NCBI GenBank assembly: GCA_037444405.1
Contig: JBBIML010000008.1
Location: forward strand, 154,957 to 218,956
Length of the DNA: 64,000 nt
Source: Armatimonadota bacterium
Lineage (GTDB): Bacteria > Armatimonadota > Fimbriimonadia > Fimbriimonadales > GBS-DC
Reading direction: 5' to 3'
Shown here in pieces: positions 6,644 to 60,061 of the stretch (positions are counted from its first letter, which is position 1; every line of letters begins with the position of its first letter). Below the pieces are notes generated by a model. The model ran no database searches. It was not told where the DNA came from and saw nothing but the letters and a program-made list of their open reading frames with translations. The translations under genes and the position numbers were made by a program.

Positions 6644-6680
6644 CCCTCACCCCCTCTCCCACAGCGTGGGAGAGGGGGGC
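6644..6680. repeat. CCCTCACCCC...CTCTCCC...GGGAGAGGGG palindromic intergenic repeat
   Basis: Hairpin CCCCCTCTCCCAC-AGC-GTGGGAGAGGGGG; related copies at 20325-20361 and 59968-60061. Confidence 0.75.
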
Positions 6681-21790: not shown

Positions 21791-21905
21791 CTGCGCCTAT
21801 AACCGTTTGTGGCACTTCCGGTGGTGTTGCGCCCCTGCCCACCAGTATTACCACGCCCTGCCGCACAACAGAGAGAATACCCTCAAGGGGTATACTTCTG
21901 CTGCT

Positions 21906-23753
21906 ATGGGCACTGTTCGCACGGACACGGATGTTCAGATGGAGGTCTACTATCGCCCCCATCGCTCCAGTCGGGCGATTCTGGAGCCTGAGCCGCCGCT
22001 GAGCGAGCTGGGGGGCACTTTCTGGGTGATTTTGCACAATCGGCGACGCCAGCCTTGCAATGTGAGCGCGATTTTGATTAATGGTGTGCCCGCCGAATCG
22101 CTGACCAACGGCAACGGGCTGAACTGGTTCCGCCTCACGCCGGAGCCGCTGCCGCCTGATGGCGCCGCGTTGCTGATTCTGAACATGCAGGCGTCGCTGC
22201 TGCGTCGGTCGCCGCTGCGTCTGAGCCTGTGGCTGGCGGACGGCGCACGCCACGAATGGGTACTGCCCACCGATTCGTCGCCGCTGACGCTCGCCAGCGC
22301 GTGGCTGGACGGGCGCGCGTTGACGGTGGTGGTGCGCAACGACGACCCGCAACGCGCATGGCGCATCGAGCGACTGCGCGTGGACGGCAGATCCGTGCGC
22401 TTCCGAACGCCCGATGCCACCCTCGCGCCCCGCACGCTCACTTTCGTCCATGCCCGACTGCCCCACACACCTGAACCCCCTACAAGCCTCATCCTGCAGG
22501 TCGATGCGCGCGCGGGCGCGGCGACCACCATGACGGCAGGCACGGTGCGACCCTTGCCCCGCTTCTTCCCGATAGGCACATGGCGGGATTCCGCATGGGG
22601 CGACGAAACGCTGATGCGCGAGCTGGTTGAGCGCGGCTTCGACACCTTCGTGTTCAGCGCGTCGGATAAACCGAACGACACAGAGCGGCGTGCTTTCGAG
22701 CAGATATGTCCGCAATCGGGTGTCAGGGCGCTGGTGTTTGCGGGCTTCCCGCGCCCCACCGCGCGCTTTATCGAACGCCACGCCCGCAACCCCCACATCG
22801 CGGCTTATATGATCAAGGATGAACCCGACTGGACTTCGCCGCGCGAGGTGGACGGCTGGCATCTGCCCACGCTGTGCGAACGGATTGCTCAGTTCATTCG
22901 GGATCGGCAGGTGGCGCCGCCGCTCTATCTCAATCTGGCGCGTTCGCGTCGGTTCGGCGAGTTCGCCACCATCCCCGACATCGCCTGCTACGACGCCTAT
23001 CGCGTCGGCGCGCCGATGCCCGATTTGTCGCCCGAGCCGTGGGGCAATCGGCTGGAGCTGACGGCGACCTACACAGAGGATTTGCGAGCGAACTGCGAGC
23101 CGCTGCCCTTCTGGGTGTGGGCGCAGGGAGCGCACGCATGGGACGAGCGCATCTGGATCGATGGACAGATCGGGCGGGCATGCCCCACCCCTGAAGAGAT
23201 TCGGGTTCAGCTCTGGCTCCAGCTGAGCCGCGGCGCGAAGGGCGTCCTGTGGTTCACCACCTTCCGCGAAGAGGAGTTCCGCCGCCACTACAGCGCGAAC
23301 CCCACCCTGCAGCGCCTGCCCGAAGCGGAGCGCCAGCGCGCGATGGAGCAACTGGTCGCGCATGGACGCGAGGCATACGCGGAGCAGACGCGCCTGAACC
23401 GCTTTTTGCAGACTGTACGCGACCGCCTGCTGCGCATGGAGTGGGCAGGCAACGCGACGATTGAGCAGGCGAGCAACCCGACACGACTGGACGCCTCACT
23501 TCTGCTGGGCGAGCGTGAAGCCGTGCTGTGGCTGACCAATCTGGACTACGAGATGCACCCGCAGGGGTATCGGTTCCGCGAACAGCGCGCTATACGGGTG
23601 CTGGTGCCGTTGCCACGCTGGTTCAAGCCGCGCCGTGCGCAGTTTCGTGACCCTGCCAGCGAGCGCGAAATCGAGTTTCAGCCCGTGCCTGAAGGCGTGC
23701 GCATCGCGCTGGACGCCCTGCCCGAACAGGTGGGCAGTCTCTGGCTGGAGTGA
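21906..23753 (+). CDS. Hypothetical protein, probable glycoside-hydrolase-like TIM barrel with Ig-like N-terminal domains
   Basis: FFPIG, YMIKDEPD, D.Y, P.WVWAQ and GAKGVLWF motifs typical of uncharacterised clan GH-A-like proteins; start uncertain. Confidence 0.65.
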   Translation: MGTVRTDTDVQMEVYYRPHRSSRAILEPEPPLSELGGTFWVILHNRRRQPCNVSAILINGVPAESLTNGNGLNWFRLTPEPLPPDGAALLILNMQASLLRRSPLRLSLWLADGARHEWVLPTDSSPLTLASAWLDGRALTVVVRNDDPQRAWRIERLRVDGRSVRFRTPDATLAPRTLTFVHARLPHTPEPPTSLILQVDARAGAATTMTAGTVRPLPRFFPIGTWRDSAWGDETLMRELVERGFDTFVFSASDKPNDTERRAFEQICPQSGVRALVFAGFPRPTARFIERHARNPHIAAYMIKDEPDWTSPREVDGWHLPTLCERIAQFIRDRQVAPPLYLNLARSRRFGEFATIPDIACYDAYRVGAPMPDLSPEPWGNRLELTATYTEDLRANCEPLPFWVWAQGAHAWDERIWIDGQIGRACPTPEEIRVQLWLQLSRGAKGVLWFTTFREEEFRRHYSANPTLQRLPEAERQRAMEQLVAHGREAYAEQTRLNRFLQTVRDRLLRMEWAGNATIEQASNPTRLDASLLLGEREAVLWLTNLDYEMHPQGYRFREQRAIRVLVPLPRWFKPRRAQFRDPASEREIEFQPVPEGVRIALDALPEQVGSLWLE

Positions 23754-23762
23754 ACCCGACGC

Positions 23763-24107
23763 TTAGCCTGGCGGCCAGGTCATCTGGCGACCGCCCAGCA
23801 GATGAAAATGCAGGTGGAACACCGACTGCCCCGCGGCGCGGTTCGTGTTCAACACCACGCGATAGCCCTCCGTCTCGATGCCCTCCTGGCGGGCAAGCTG
23901 AGCGCACACTTCCAGCAGATGCCCCAGCAGCGGCGCATGATCGGGCTGGGACTGCGCCAGGCTCGGAATGTGCGCGCGGGGCACCACCAGCACATGCACG
24001 GGCGCCTGCGGGTTAATGTCCCGAAAGGCGACCGCATGCTCGTCTTCATAGATGATATTGGCAGGTATCTCCCGCGCCACGATTTTGCAAAACAGGCATT
24101 CACTCAT
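23763..24107 (-). CDS. HIT-family nucleotide-binding protein (HinT-like)
   Basis: CLFCKI, FRDINPQAPVH and AGQSVFHLHFHLLGGR motifs. Confidence 0.97.
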   Translation of the reverse strand: MSECLFCKIVAREIPANIIYEDEHAVAFRDINPQAPVHVLVVPRAHIPSLAQSQPDHAPLLGHLLEVCAQLARQEGIETEGYRVVLNTNRAAGQSVFHLHFHLLGGRQMTWPPG

Positions 24108-24846
24108 GGTGGCTCTCCTCCTTCAGGTGGGTCAGGCGCACGCCCGTCAGCAGCTCCCGCAGCTTCTGCAGCACCTCCTGCTCCATCTGGCGCACCTCGT
24201 CGACCTTGAGCGAGAACATCTCGGCGACCTCTTCGTGCGTATGCACGCGCTCGCCATGCAGCCCATACAGGAGCTTGATGAGCGCGCGTTCAGCAGGCAG
24301 CAGGGTCGCCAGCGCGCTCTCTAACTGCTTGCCGTCAACGCTCAGCGGGTCCAGCGCCTCGGCTTGCGCGGCGAGCGTGGCTTTCTGACGCTTCTCCCGC
24401 TCGTGCCACATGCGCACCACGCCCTCCACCTGCCGATAGTTAACTGTCTCCACATAGTAGCCCTCCGCCCAGAAACTGCGCTTGCCGATACGCCGTTCCA
24501 GACGCGGCAACGCTTCAAACAGGCGGTGCGCTGTACCGCGCTTGATATTGCCCACCAAATCGGTCAGCGCCACCGTCGGCTTATAACTAACCAGCAGATG
24601 CACCTGGTTCGGCTTTAGATAGTAGGCGACGAGCTGATACTCATATTGCTGGCAGACCTCCCGCAGCGCATGGATGAAGGCGGGGATAACCTCCTCATCT
24701 AACAGCGGCTGACGGGCGCGAGTGTAGAAAGTCGCGAGGCAATACAAACGGTAGGCGCTCGATCCACTGGTGTGGACCTGCTCATAAGGCGACCCCGTAG
24801 TCTGTCGTGCTGGTGAACCAGCCGTCTGTTCGCGTTGTGCCGGCAT
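24100..24846 (-). CDS. Fusion: degenerate IS200/IS605 (Y1) transposase domain + sigma70 region-4-like domain
   Basis: TRARQPLL...KPNQVHLLVS...LVGNIKRGTA...FWAEGYYVETV (Y1 Tnp pattern), then LESALATLLPAERALIKLLYGL..ERVHTHEEVAEMF...VRQMEQEVLQKLR (sigma4 pattern). Confidence 0.85.
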   Translation of the reverse strand: MPAQREQTAGSPARQTTGSPYEQVHTSGSSAYRLYCLATFYTRARQPLLDEEVIPAFIHALREVCQQYEYQLVAYYLKPNQVHLLVSYKPTVALTDLVGNIKRGTAHRLFEALPRLERRIGKRSFWAEGYYVETVNYRQVEGVVRMWHEREKRQKATLAAQAEALDPLSVDGKQLESALATLLPAERALIKLLYGLHGERVHTHEEVAEMFSLKVDEVRQMEQEVLQKLRELLTGVRLTHLKEESHHE

Positions 24847-24948
24847 TCCTTCCACGCCTCCACACAAAAAGCCCTGTACAGCCTATCTTCCATAGTATAC
24901 CCCACTTCTTGCGCTCCTTCCTGCCTGCACAGGTAAAATTCCTGTGAA

Positions 24949-26322
24949 ATGGGCGCACCGAAACGACCAGTGCTGGCGATTGTGGGACGACCGAATGTGG
25001 GCAAATCGACGCTTTTTAATCGCCTGCTGGGTCGGCGGGTGGCAATTGTGGAGGCGATACCGGGCGTGACGCGCGACCGCCTGTATGGTGAAGCCGAGTG
25101 GCAGGCTCGCCCCTTTACCGTAATCGACACGGGCGGAATCCTGTTCGGTGCGGACGACCCGCTGCTGGAGCAGGTGCGCGTGCAGGCGCAAATCGCCATC
25201 CACGAAGCCGACTGCGTGCTGTTTCTGGTGGACGCCCGCGAGGGGCTGAACCCCGTCGATGAAGAGATTGCCAATCTCCTGCGCCGCAGCGGCAAGCCTG
25301 TGCTGCTGCTGGTAAACAAAGCTGATAACCCTGCACGCTGGGAAGCCCAGCGCGCCGAGTTCTTCCGACTGGGGCTGGGCGAGCCTATCCCCATCTCCGC
25401 CATTCACGGACATAACTTGGCCGAAGTGCTGGAAGAAGCCTTCCAGCGCATCGAGGCGGACGCCGCACCCGAAGCGGAGGAAGAGGCTCTTGAGCCGCTC
25501 CGACTGGCGATTGTGGGTCGACCGAATGTGGGCAAATCGTCGCTGCTGAACGCGATCCTGAACGAGCCGCGCGCGATTGTGAGTGAGAAGGCGGGCACCA
25601 CACGCGACGCGCTGGACACACCCTTCACCTGGAACGGTCAGCCGATGGTGCTGATCGACACGGCGGGCATCCGTCGCCCCGGTCAGGTGCAGGGTTCGCT
25701 GGACTATTATGCGCAGTTGCGAGCGGAGCGCGCCCTGCAGCGCGCCGATGTCGCGCTGGTGGTCATCGACGCGAAAGAGGGGCTGACCCATCGCGACCGC
25801 CGAATCGCCCAGCTCGCCATCGACGCTGGACGCGCCTGCGTCTGGGTCGCCAACAAGTGGGACCTGGTGGAGCCGCCCGACGGTCAACTCGCCCAAAATA
25901 CGCCCGCCAAACGCGACTTCATCCGACTGGTTCGGCAGAGCGCGCCCGCGCTCGATTTTGTGCCCCTCCAGTTCGTGTCGGCGCTCCATCAGGTGGGCAT
26001 CGAACCACTGCTGAAAACCGCCCTGCAGGTCGCCGAGTTCCACAGCATGCGTGTCTCAACGGGCGAACTCAATCGGCTCATTCACGACGCGCTCTATGAG
26101 CGACCCTACTCGCGCAAGGGCAAGCCGCTTAAGATTTACTACGCCACGATGGCAGAGGTGCGCCCGCCCACGATTGTGCTGTTCGTGAACGACCCCGAAA
26201 TTGTCCACTTCTCGTACCTGCGCTATCTGGAGAATCGGCTCCGCGAGCGATATGCCTACACGGGCACGCCCATCCGCTGGGTGGTGCGCCCCGCCCACAA
26301 GGAGCCAGAATCAACCACCTGA
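24949..26322 (+). CDS. der: Ribosome biogenesis GTPase Der (EngA)
   Basis: Two GRPNVGKS/DTxG/NKxD GTPase domains plus a KH-like tail (YLRYLEN). Confidence 0.97.
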   Translation: MGAPKRPVLAIVGRPNVGKSTLFNRLLGRRVAIVEAIPGVTRDRLYGEAEWQARPFTVIDTGGILFGADDPLLEQVRVQAQIAIHEADCVLFLVDAREGLNPVDEEIANLLRRSGKPVLLLVNKADNPARWEAQRAEFFRLGLGEPIPISAIHGHNLAEVLEEAFQRIEADAAPEAEEEALEPLRLAIVGRPNVGKSSLLNAILNEPRAIVSEKAGTTRDALDTPFTWNGQPMVLIDTAGIRRPGQVQGSLDYYAQLRAERALQRADVALVVIDAKEGLTHRDRRIAQLAIDAGRACVWVANKWDLVEPPDGQLAQNTPAKRDFIRLVRQSAPALDFVPLQFVSALHQVGIEPLLKTALQVAEFHSMRVSTGELNRLIHDALYERPYSRKGKPLKIYYATMAEVRPPTIVLFVNDPEIVHFSYLRYLENRLRERYAYTGTPIRWVVRPAHKEPESTT

Positions 26323-59967: not shown

Positions 59968-60061
59968 CCCTCACCCCTCATCCCCCTCTCCCGACGCTGT
60001 GGGAGAGGGGGTTGAGTTATCCCTCCCCCCGTAAGCGGGGGAGAGGATACGGGTGAGGGGG
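59968..60061. repeat. Composite CCCTCACCC-family palindromic repeat (likely bidirectional terminator)
   Basis: Two inverted units framed by CCCTCACCC...GGGTGAGGG between convergent genes. Confidence 0.75.

Follow-up and report, generated by a model that had tools for sequence, protein, structure and literature searches.

A Single-Copy Fusion of a Degenerate IS200/IS605 Transposase Domain and a Sigma Region 4-like Domain in One Family of Armatimonadota

The Locus and the Encoded Protein

The stretch of DNA considered here (hereinafter, the window) comprises 64,000 nucleotides of the contig JBBIML010000008.1 (positions 154,957 to 218,956 of the forward strand) from the genome assembly GCA_037444405.1 of an Armatimonadota bacterium (Fimbriimonadales; GBS-DC). 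It harbors, at 24100..24846 on the (-) strand, an open reading frame (ORF; P0001) whose 248-amino acid (aa) translation combines a Y1 transposase domain of the insertion sequence (IS) type IS200/IS605 (Pfam Y1_Tnp) with a domain resembling region 4 of sigma70 factors (Pfam Sigma70_r4). The fusion gene is followed on the same strand by a gene of a 114-aa HIT (HinT-like) hydrolase (23763..24107 (-); Pfam HIT, E 9.6e-30), the ATG of which overlaps the fusion stop by 8 bp (24100-24107). Its divergent neighbor is der, coding for the EngA GTPase (24949..26322 (+); two Pfam MMR_HSR1 matches and a KH_dom-like one). The ORF map and Pfam thus agree with a preliminary description of this DNA, made from the letters alone, on the overlap and on the divergent der. 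The span 23763-24846 given there does contain the fusion gene, although it is not a single gene, since the separate HIT gene is also included.

The two-domain architecture proposed in that description was borne out by matches of profile hidden Markov models to both domains above the curated cut-offs and by structure matches (see below). An AlphaFold2 model of the protein, built from 32 relatives, attained a predicted local distance difference test (pLDDT) score of 78. In the model, the core follows the order beta-alpha-beta-beta-alpha-alpha-beta, the C-terminal domain consists of four helices, and a long helix (residues 137-164) joins the Y1 and the sigma4-type domains.

The Y1 Domain and the Loss of Its Active Site

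The HUH-fold (Y1) domain occupies residues 32-141 (24424..24753 (-)), where the Pfam model Y1_Tnp matches with an E value of 3.7e-21 and 75.9 bits (cut-off 23), and the NCBIfam model transpos_IS200 scores 79 bits on the fusion (cut-off 55). The closest structural template is the transposase TnpA of ISDra2, found by a PDB profile search at E 1e-14 and by Foldseek with a template modeling (TM) score of about 0.8 for the core and a root-mean-square deviation of 1.9-2.0 Å over 112 columns.

The residues essential for catalysis in this fold are missing. In the profile alignment, the stretch P-N-Q-V-H-L-L-L of the fusion protein sits on P-D-H-V-H-L-L-L of ISDra2 TnpA, so the degenerate HUH motif is N80-Q81-V82-H83 (24598..24609 (-)). 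The former catalytic-tyrosine helix reads M146-W147-H-E-R150 (24397..24411 (-)): the position differing between the wild-type (2xm3) and the Y132F (2xo6) chains of ISDra2 TnpA aligns with M146, beside W147. Both the N-Q-V-H and the Trp (24406-24408) are located where the preliminary description had placed them.

The alignment of 32 relatives shows that the loss is a family trait. The first His of the HUH motif is replaced by Gln (Q81) in all 32 proteins, and the second (position 83) is retained in 23 of them, the others carrying Asn (5), Tyr (2), Gln (1), or Thr (1). Tyr occurs at residue 146 in none of the relatives (it is Met in the window protein), W147 and R150 are each retained in 30/32, and no conserved Tyr was found among the relatives between residues 134 and 172, the best candidate, Y163, being present in 19/32 and absent from the window protein. 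In the two most distant members (39-41% identity), the motif reads N-Q-L-Q and N-Q-V-T and W147 is lost; both Pfam domains are still there. The claim of a dead active site, initially made for one sequence, hence holds for the family. According to a study on IS608 TnpA, catalysis requires the HUH motif of one monomer and the Tyr (Tyr127, helix alphaD) of the other (PMC3597680). On sequence grounds, catalysis of the IS608 type is excluded for the fusion family, because the first His of HUH and the catalytic Tyr have been lost family-wide. We infer from the aligned residues that the fusion protein does not cut DNA.

Degeneration of an HUH motif was also observed in other proteins with Y1 domains. 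Seven of them (P0050, P0064, P0069, P0076, P0091, P0099, and P0145; 278-293 aa) possess two tandem Y1_Tnp domains per chain according to the HMMER matches. In those examined, an intact motif (H-V-H or H-M-H) in one domain is accompanied by a degenerate one in the other (e.g., R-V-E or N-L-R). The tandem proteins may represent single-chain TnpA pseudo-dimers.

The Sigma Region 4-like Domain

The C-terminal helix-turn-helix (HTH) domain spans residues 178-231 (24154..24315 (-)), where Sigma70_r4 matches with E 2.6e-08 and 33.7 bits (cut-off 24.1). The region 4 pieces of the NCBIfam RpoD models match here as well, and the PDB profile search retrieved SigA chains at E 4e-10. Foldseek aligned the domain with region 4 of primary sigmas (sigmaA) at TM scores of 0.73-0.84 and 31-39% identity. 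Among the 19 sigma ORFs extracted from the host genome, the best matches are the two of the RpoD type, at 34-36% identity and E values of about 1e-8; the domain is no recent copy of the host rpoD. Region 2 (Sigma70_r2) has no Pfam match in the fusion, all 22 region 2 matches of the genome being located elsewhere. Since it lacks region 2, the fusion protein is not a sigma factor.

The charge of the domain departs from that of a DNA-reading region 4. The 28-residue HTH segment carries a net charge of -3 vs. +3 in the aligned segment of the host RpoD, and the range across the 32 relatives is -4 to +1. The Arg stressed in the preliminary description, R219, is variable (Arg in 11/32); the near-invariant residues of the recognition helix are K214 (30/32), E217 (32/32), and Q220 (29/32). 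So acidic a recognition helix would be a poor DNA reader, which argues against the recognition of -35 elements; because of this acidity, a protein-docking role is given more weight here than -35 reading.

A conceivable docking site is present in the host. In a report on a sigma32 structure (PMC10216364), region 4 of sigma is described as binding the tip helix of the beta-flap, with Glu, Lys/Arg, Leu, Ile, and Phe positions on the flap side of the sigma32 interface. In the host RNA polymerase, the beta-flap covers about residues 880-975 of RpoB, and its tip retains those Glu, Lys/Arg, Leu, Ile, and Phe positions, the comparison being with the sigma32 structure. The same host RpoB (1402 aa; G000:C35:9005-13213 (+)) bears a CxxC...CxxC zinc-ribbon-like insertion at about residues 981-1004, soon after the flap tip.

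Distribution, Copy Number, and Selection

The window genome (2.68 Mb, 98.9% complete) contains exactly one match to Y1_Tnp (PF01797), which is the fusion gene, and no TnpB-type match. The intergenic DNA flanking the gene is free of hairpins, terminator-like sites, and inverted repeats. The genome search for TnpB and the scans of the flanks are therefore in line with the original observation that tnpB and IS end hairpins are lacking. In other genomes of the same GTDB family, one copy each was found in 22 of 24. One of the two misses (G160) has a contig that stops 70 bp upstream of the HIT gene, and in the other (G165, 87% complete), HIT is absent too. The fusion gene was found in none of the 16 genomes from four sister families in the order, and another 150 genomes from across the phylum gave no full-length match. 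A complete genome of the largest genus (G162) has a second, weak Y1_Tnp match (G162:C1:1509374-1509634 (-), 33 bits, in a 253-aa frame), which sits 16 kb from its fusion gene and lacks a counterpart in the window genome.

A word-indexed search yielded 45 homologs, 200-254 aa long and 45-85% identical; those with a named source all stem from metagenome-assembled genomes of Armatimonadota or Fimbriimonadales. When 1.84 billion cluster representatives were searched exhaustively with HMMER, 5 proteins were recovered at E <= 1e-30, and the next hits were all ordinary TnpA proteins or sigma factors. In the ESM Atlas, a single cluster matched; of its 140 members, 100% carry Y1_Tnp and 41% Sigma70_r4. 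For the relatives, NCBI and JGI use the names “IS200/IS605 family transposase” and “REP element-mobilizing transposase RayT”.

The ratio of nonsynonymous to synonymous substitution rates (dN/dS) was obtained by the Nei-Gojobori method for 11 orthologue pairs. Over its full length, the gene has values of 0.03-0.19; taken separately, the Y1 domain has 0.01-0.21 and the sigma4 domain 0.02-0.30. With values this low in both domains, both halves of the protein are maintained by selection. Overall, the gene is very likely a domesticated, catalytically dead IS200/IS605 TnpA fusion, fixed in the chromosome of a single Armatimonadota family at one copy per genome. The domestication and immobility surmised earlier are upheld by the one copy per genome, the confinement to one family, and the dN/dS values. 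The orthologue search that had been suggested along with them showed that the relatives keep both the fusion and the dead site, none with HUH plus Tyr being seen in the 32-relative alignment.

Genomic Neighborhood and the HIT Gene

The HIT gene lies directly downstream and on the same strand in 23 of the 24 orthologous loci (the 24th is interrupted by a contig end), and the fusion stop and the HIT start codons often overlap. Of the der/HIT synteny expected for the orthologues, this adjacency is the part that stands; the three closest loci (L001-L003) are the only ones with der as the divergent neighbor. Members of the largest genus have a DinG-like helicase gene upstream of the fusion gene. 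In the two most divergent genera (G154 and G158), the fusion gene resides elsewhere and HIT is on another contig; one copy is found beside nrdR and ribonucleotide reductase, the other after pyrR-pyrB. The 1321-aa ribonucleotide reductase-like ORF beside nrdR (L057 6409-10374 (+), in G158) has an apparent intein-like insertion, as read from its translation.

In four sister-family genomes without the fusion gene, HIT adjoins other upstream genes equally tightly; by eye, from their termini and not by profile models, these were named MiaB-like (twice), WaaA-like, and FtsY. Because HIT abuts unrelated genes just as closely there, its pairing with the fusion gene is weak evidence for a shared function. 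The conserved pairing may be only positional, i.e., a record of where an IS once landed. A complex prediction for the HIT protein and residues 28-240 of the fusion, based on a 32-row alignment, returned no answer (scores 0.00 and 0.00) and speaks neither for nor against the pairing.

The Promoter and a Family-Enriched Promoter Class

The -10 region of the fusion gene promoter, GGGGTATACT, is located at 24894..24903 (-), and its core, TATACT, precedes the gene in 22 of the 24 orthologous loci. The preliminary description had treated this -10 as the gene's own. The motif is indeed present and conserved; its privacy to the gene does not hold, since GGTATA[AC]T occurs at 437 sites genome-wide and represents a general extended -10 motif of this genome. 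A private promoter was accordingly rejected. The 168 GGTATACT sites listed lie mostly immediately upstream of start codons, and TTGACA occupies the -35 position at only about 22 of the 437 GGTATA[AC]T sites. A consensus scan of 23400-25200 found no TTGACA-type promoters and one terminator-like site, which falls within a coding region and is at chance level.

At the -35 position of the fusion gene promoter, 18 nt upstream of TATACT, there is a GGCAGGAA box (24918..24925 (-)). It belongs to a promoter class enriched only in this bacterial family, in which GCAGGAAT stands exactly 17 nt upstream of a TATAAT-type -10 resembling the general one (18-21 sites in the genome, e.g., G000:C10:106523-106552 and G000:C29:27480-27509). 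The spacing is sharp: at 21 sites, CAGGAA precedes TAnAnT by exactly 17 nt, vs. 1-4 sites at spacers of 15, 16, 18, 19, and 20 nt, and the reversed-motif control gave 0 sites at spacer 17 in the window genome. Genes behind GCAGGAAT promoters include several with a prepilin-type N-terminus (assigned by eye), secreted proteins, a cold-shock protein, and apt. The pattern GCAGGAA-N17-TAYAMT was detected in 23/24 other genomes of the family, with up to 19 sites each, and as single hits in 2/16 sister-family genomes; elsewhere in the phylum (150 genomes), it did not exceed 4 sites per genome, a level also attained by the reversed control. Upstream of the fusion gene itself, NAGGAA lies 16-19 nt before TATACT in 11 of the 24 orthologous loci and not so in the other 13. 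In the two most divergent members, the GCAGGAAT box is absent or differently spaced.

The box can be read in a simpler way. It fits RNAGGAWWW, a consensus that comes from Bacillus, where it is given for the -35 element of sigmaH (PMC8510167). The host has two sigmaH-like sigmas. The first (G000:C13:94433-95260 (+)) was rejected as a lineage-specific reader of GCAGGAAT, being present also in 12/16 sister-family genomes. The second, P0195 (G000:C15:14751-15341 (-)), has close orthologues (E <= 1e-37) in the same family only, among the 41 genomes searched, and no GCAGGAAT-type box in its own upstream region. On sequence grounds, P0195 appears to be the better explanation as a candidate reader of the box, simpler than the fusion protein. 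The GCAGGAAT class and the fusion gene do share a taxon range, yet traits shared by one clade amount to one evolutionary event. Another sigma gene, of the extracytoplasmic function (ECF) type, turned up on two contigs (G000:C37:5560-6291 and G000:C4:12-719), one copy being internally deleted; this is probably an assembly duplicate.

Hairpin Repeats

The preliminary description regarded hairpins of the window resembling repetitive extragenic palindromes (REPs) as possible targets of the protein. The two perfect hairpins of the window (6650-6678 and 59983-60010) are separated from the fusion gene by 17 kb and 35 kb, respectively. They are members of a family of the structure CCCTCTCC-loop-GGAGAGGG, which counts 118 units in the window genome, often flanked by a GGGTGAGGG-type arm and in part arranged as inverted pairs. 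Hairpin counts were set against gene presence across 41 related genomes, where the copy number ranges from 0 to 323. Three gene-bearing genomes have few units (G154, 1; G157, 3; G158, 2), and the sister-family genomes G177 and G180, without the fusion gene, have 96 and 75, respectively, G180 having zero Y1 genes. The counts do not track the gene, so the REP-like hairpins were rejected as its specific target. The fusion protein may still have a general affinity for hairpins.

Possible Mode of Action

Tentatively, the fusion protein can be viewed as an RNA polymerase-associated, non-catalytic nucleic acid-binding regulator, neither a sigma factor nor a transposase; this reading is possible and is held with reserve. 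Under it, the sigma4-like domain would be mainly a protein-docking module that has lost most of the positive charge of a DNA-reading helix, its favored partner being the beta-flap tip of RNA polymerase, to which sigma region 4 normally binds. Binding of nucleic acid (single-stranded or hairpin DNA or RNA) or dimerization would fall to the Y1 module. A more specific version, which we consider unlikely, makes the protein a novel kind of accessory subunit of RNA polymerase, with the sigma4-like domain on the beta-flap tip and the dead Y1 domain reading single-stranded or hairpin nucleic acid. Such a subunit would replace sigma region 4 at promoters or act at the RNA exit channel during elongation, and the substrate of its Y1 domain would be opened promoter DNA or nascent RNA. 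In one variant, it would read the lineage-specific GCAGGAAT box at -35.

Several observations weigh against a regulator of this kind. The net charge of the Y1 domain in the family is -3 to +6 (median -1), and since the domain is not generally basic, the case for retained nucleic acid binding is weakened. No target hairpin was found, the sole abundant hairpin family showing no co-occurrence with the gene. The near-invariance of K214, E217, and Q220 may leave room for a specific contact with DNA or protein, and the conserved hydrophobic positions of the sigma4-like domain could serve the fold alone.

The near-invariant trio on the recognition helix is also what an ordinary sequence-specific transcription factor would display, i.e., one with a TnpA-like dimerization scaffold and a sigma4-type HTH reading double-stranded DNA. 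In its boldest form, this alternative has the protein read GCAGGAAT at -35, its own promoter included, as a surrogate region 4 or a class II-type activator. The sharp spacing of CAGGAA-N17-TAnAnT with its empty reversed control, the coincidence of the taxon range of GCAGGAA-N17-TAYAMT with that of the fusion gene, and the box at the -35 position of its own promoter, here and in 11/24 loci, all speak in its favor. At the same time, the HTH is acidic and its key Arg position is variable; the box fits the sigmaH consensus and has a simpler reader in P0195; co-occurrence inside one clade counts as a single evolutionary event; and the box is missing or respaced in the two most divergent members and in 13/24 loci. 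On balance, such a transcription factor is rather doubtful, though worth keeping in view. The loss of DNA-contact charge, with the fold kept under purifying selection, would suit a decoy of sigma region 4 as well. Among both the PDB chains and the host sigmas, the best counterpart of the sigma4-like domain is region 4 of primary (group 1) factors; as a decoy, the domain would titrate an activator or a protein of the anti-sigma type, with the Y1 domain as a scaffold or a sensor. However, the gene has no linked candidate for such a partner, its neighbors varying by genus (der, DinG-like helicase, nrdR, pyrR-pyrB), and a decoy seems quite improbable.

A partner that does stay next to the gene is the HIT hydrolase, with which the protein might form a functional pair, e.g., a nucleotide-responsive regulator. 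The same-strand adjacency in 23/24 loci, where the HIT start frequently overlaps the fusion stop, is countered by the separate contigs in the two most divergent genera and by the equally tight association of HIT with unrelated genes in the fusion-less sister families, so that this pairing is a very improbable basis for the function. The public annotation implies, finally, an IS200/IS605 transposase gene that is in decay or has kept its mobility, in keeping with the passed cut-off of transpos_IS200 and the names transposase and RayT. Such a gene is difficult to reconcile with the family-wide loss of the catalytic residues, the single copy confined to one family next to HIT in 23/24 loci, the dN/dS of 0.03-0.19, and the lack of IS ends and TnpB; it can be considered next to untenable.

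Comparison with Known Systems

The domestication of IS200/IS605 components is known for TnpB (TldR and Cas12) and for catalytically active relatives of TnpA (RAYT); RAYTs retain the HUH motif and the Tyr. With the TnpA of IS200/IS605 elements (ISDra2 and IS608), residues 32-141 of the fusion protein share the fold and give the best sequence and structure match. The protein differs from them by the Gln in place of the first HUH His, the missing catalytic Tyr, and the added C-terminal sigma4 domain, and its gene is single-copy, fixed in one bacterial family, and devoid of IS ends and TnpB. Of the four features defining these transposases, three (the HUH histidines, the catalytic Tyr, and the mobile-element setting) are lacking and the fold is present.

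RAYTs are described as Y1 proteins kept as host genes, usually in single copy (PMC8266576), grouped with HUH endonucleases and adjoining REP sequences (PMC3333891, PMC8266576). The fusion resembles these TnpA-REP proteins as a Y1 host gene in single copy, and it differs from them by the dead site, the absence of flanking repeats, and the lack of co-occurrence with the hairpins of the genome. The NCBIfam model REP_Tyr_transpos gives it 40.1 bits, below the cut-off of 80. The same order of a Y1 domain followed by a C-terminal HTH is encountered in TnpA-REP subclass 2.1/TIRYT, where the HTH is like Bac_DnaA_C, HTH_23, or HTH_28 (Quentin et al. 2018, PMC6006769). Those proteins are treated there as potential endonucleases, many of them between terminal inverted repeats, and the words “sigma” and “inactive” are absent from that paper (PMC6006769). 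None of Bac_DnaA_C, HTH_23, and HTH_28 matched the C-terminus of the fusion protein in Pfam at E <= 1, Sigma70_r4 being found there instead.

Conceptually closest are the dCas12f-ECF and TldR systems, which have in common with the fusion a transposon-derived module without catalysis coupled to transcription initiation: dCas12f works with an ECF sigma (PMC13472631), and TldR is a TnpB-derived, nuclease-dead regulator (PMC10705468). These systems are RNA-guided, derive from TnpB/Cas12f, and involve a whole, separate sigma factor, whereas the fusion is built of TnpA (Y1) and region 4 alone. In a 2022 review on the recruitment of mobile elements, IS200/IS605 appears only in connection with IscB and TnpB.

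A possible working analogy for a flap-docked region 4-like module is provided by gp33 of phage T4, which stands in for region 4 on the beta-flap and does not read DNA. There is no sequence relation between the two, and gp33 has no Y1 domain.

The preliminary description had not recognized the architecture as a described family, and a full-text search confined to the main texts of papers likewise gave no description of a dead Y1-sigma4 fusion, nor of any TnpA that has lost catalysis and become joined to part of a sigma factor.

Implications

The fusion protein probably represents a regulator of a new kind, linked to transcription. Should it bind RNA polymerase, it would exemplify a second, protein-only route by which DNA-recognition modules of transposons are recruited into the control of transcription. 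In that event, a compact module binding hairpins or single strands would come with a natural polymerase adaptor; if the Y1 domain of an accessory subunit also read such nucleic acids, a former transposase would endow the polymerase with structure-specific recognition. For censuses of mobile elements in these genomes, the transposase label assigned to the fusion by public pipelines is wrong.

Other Features of the Region

A 648-aa ORF (21807-23753 (+)) is convergent on the HIT gene of the window, with 9 nt between the stops. It has no match in Pfam or PADLOC and is 75-92% identical in the two closest loci holding it. PADLOC gave no sign of a defense system: the fusion yielded only a weak region 4 match to MzaA, and the HIT protein, a generic HIT match to ThsC. 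The stretch is contained in four DNA metagenome runs from one study, and no RNA runs containing it are listed.

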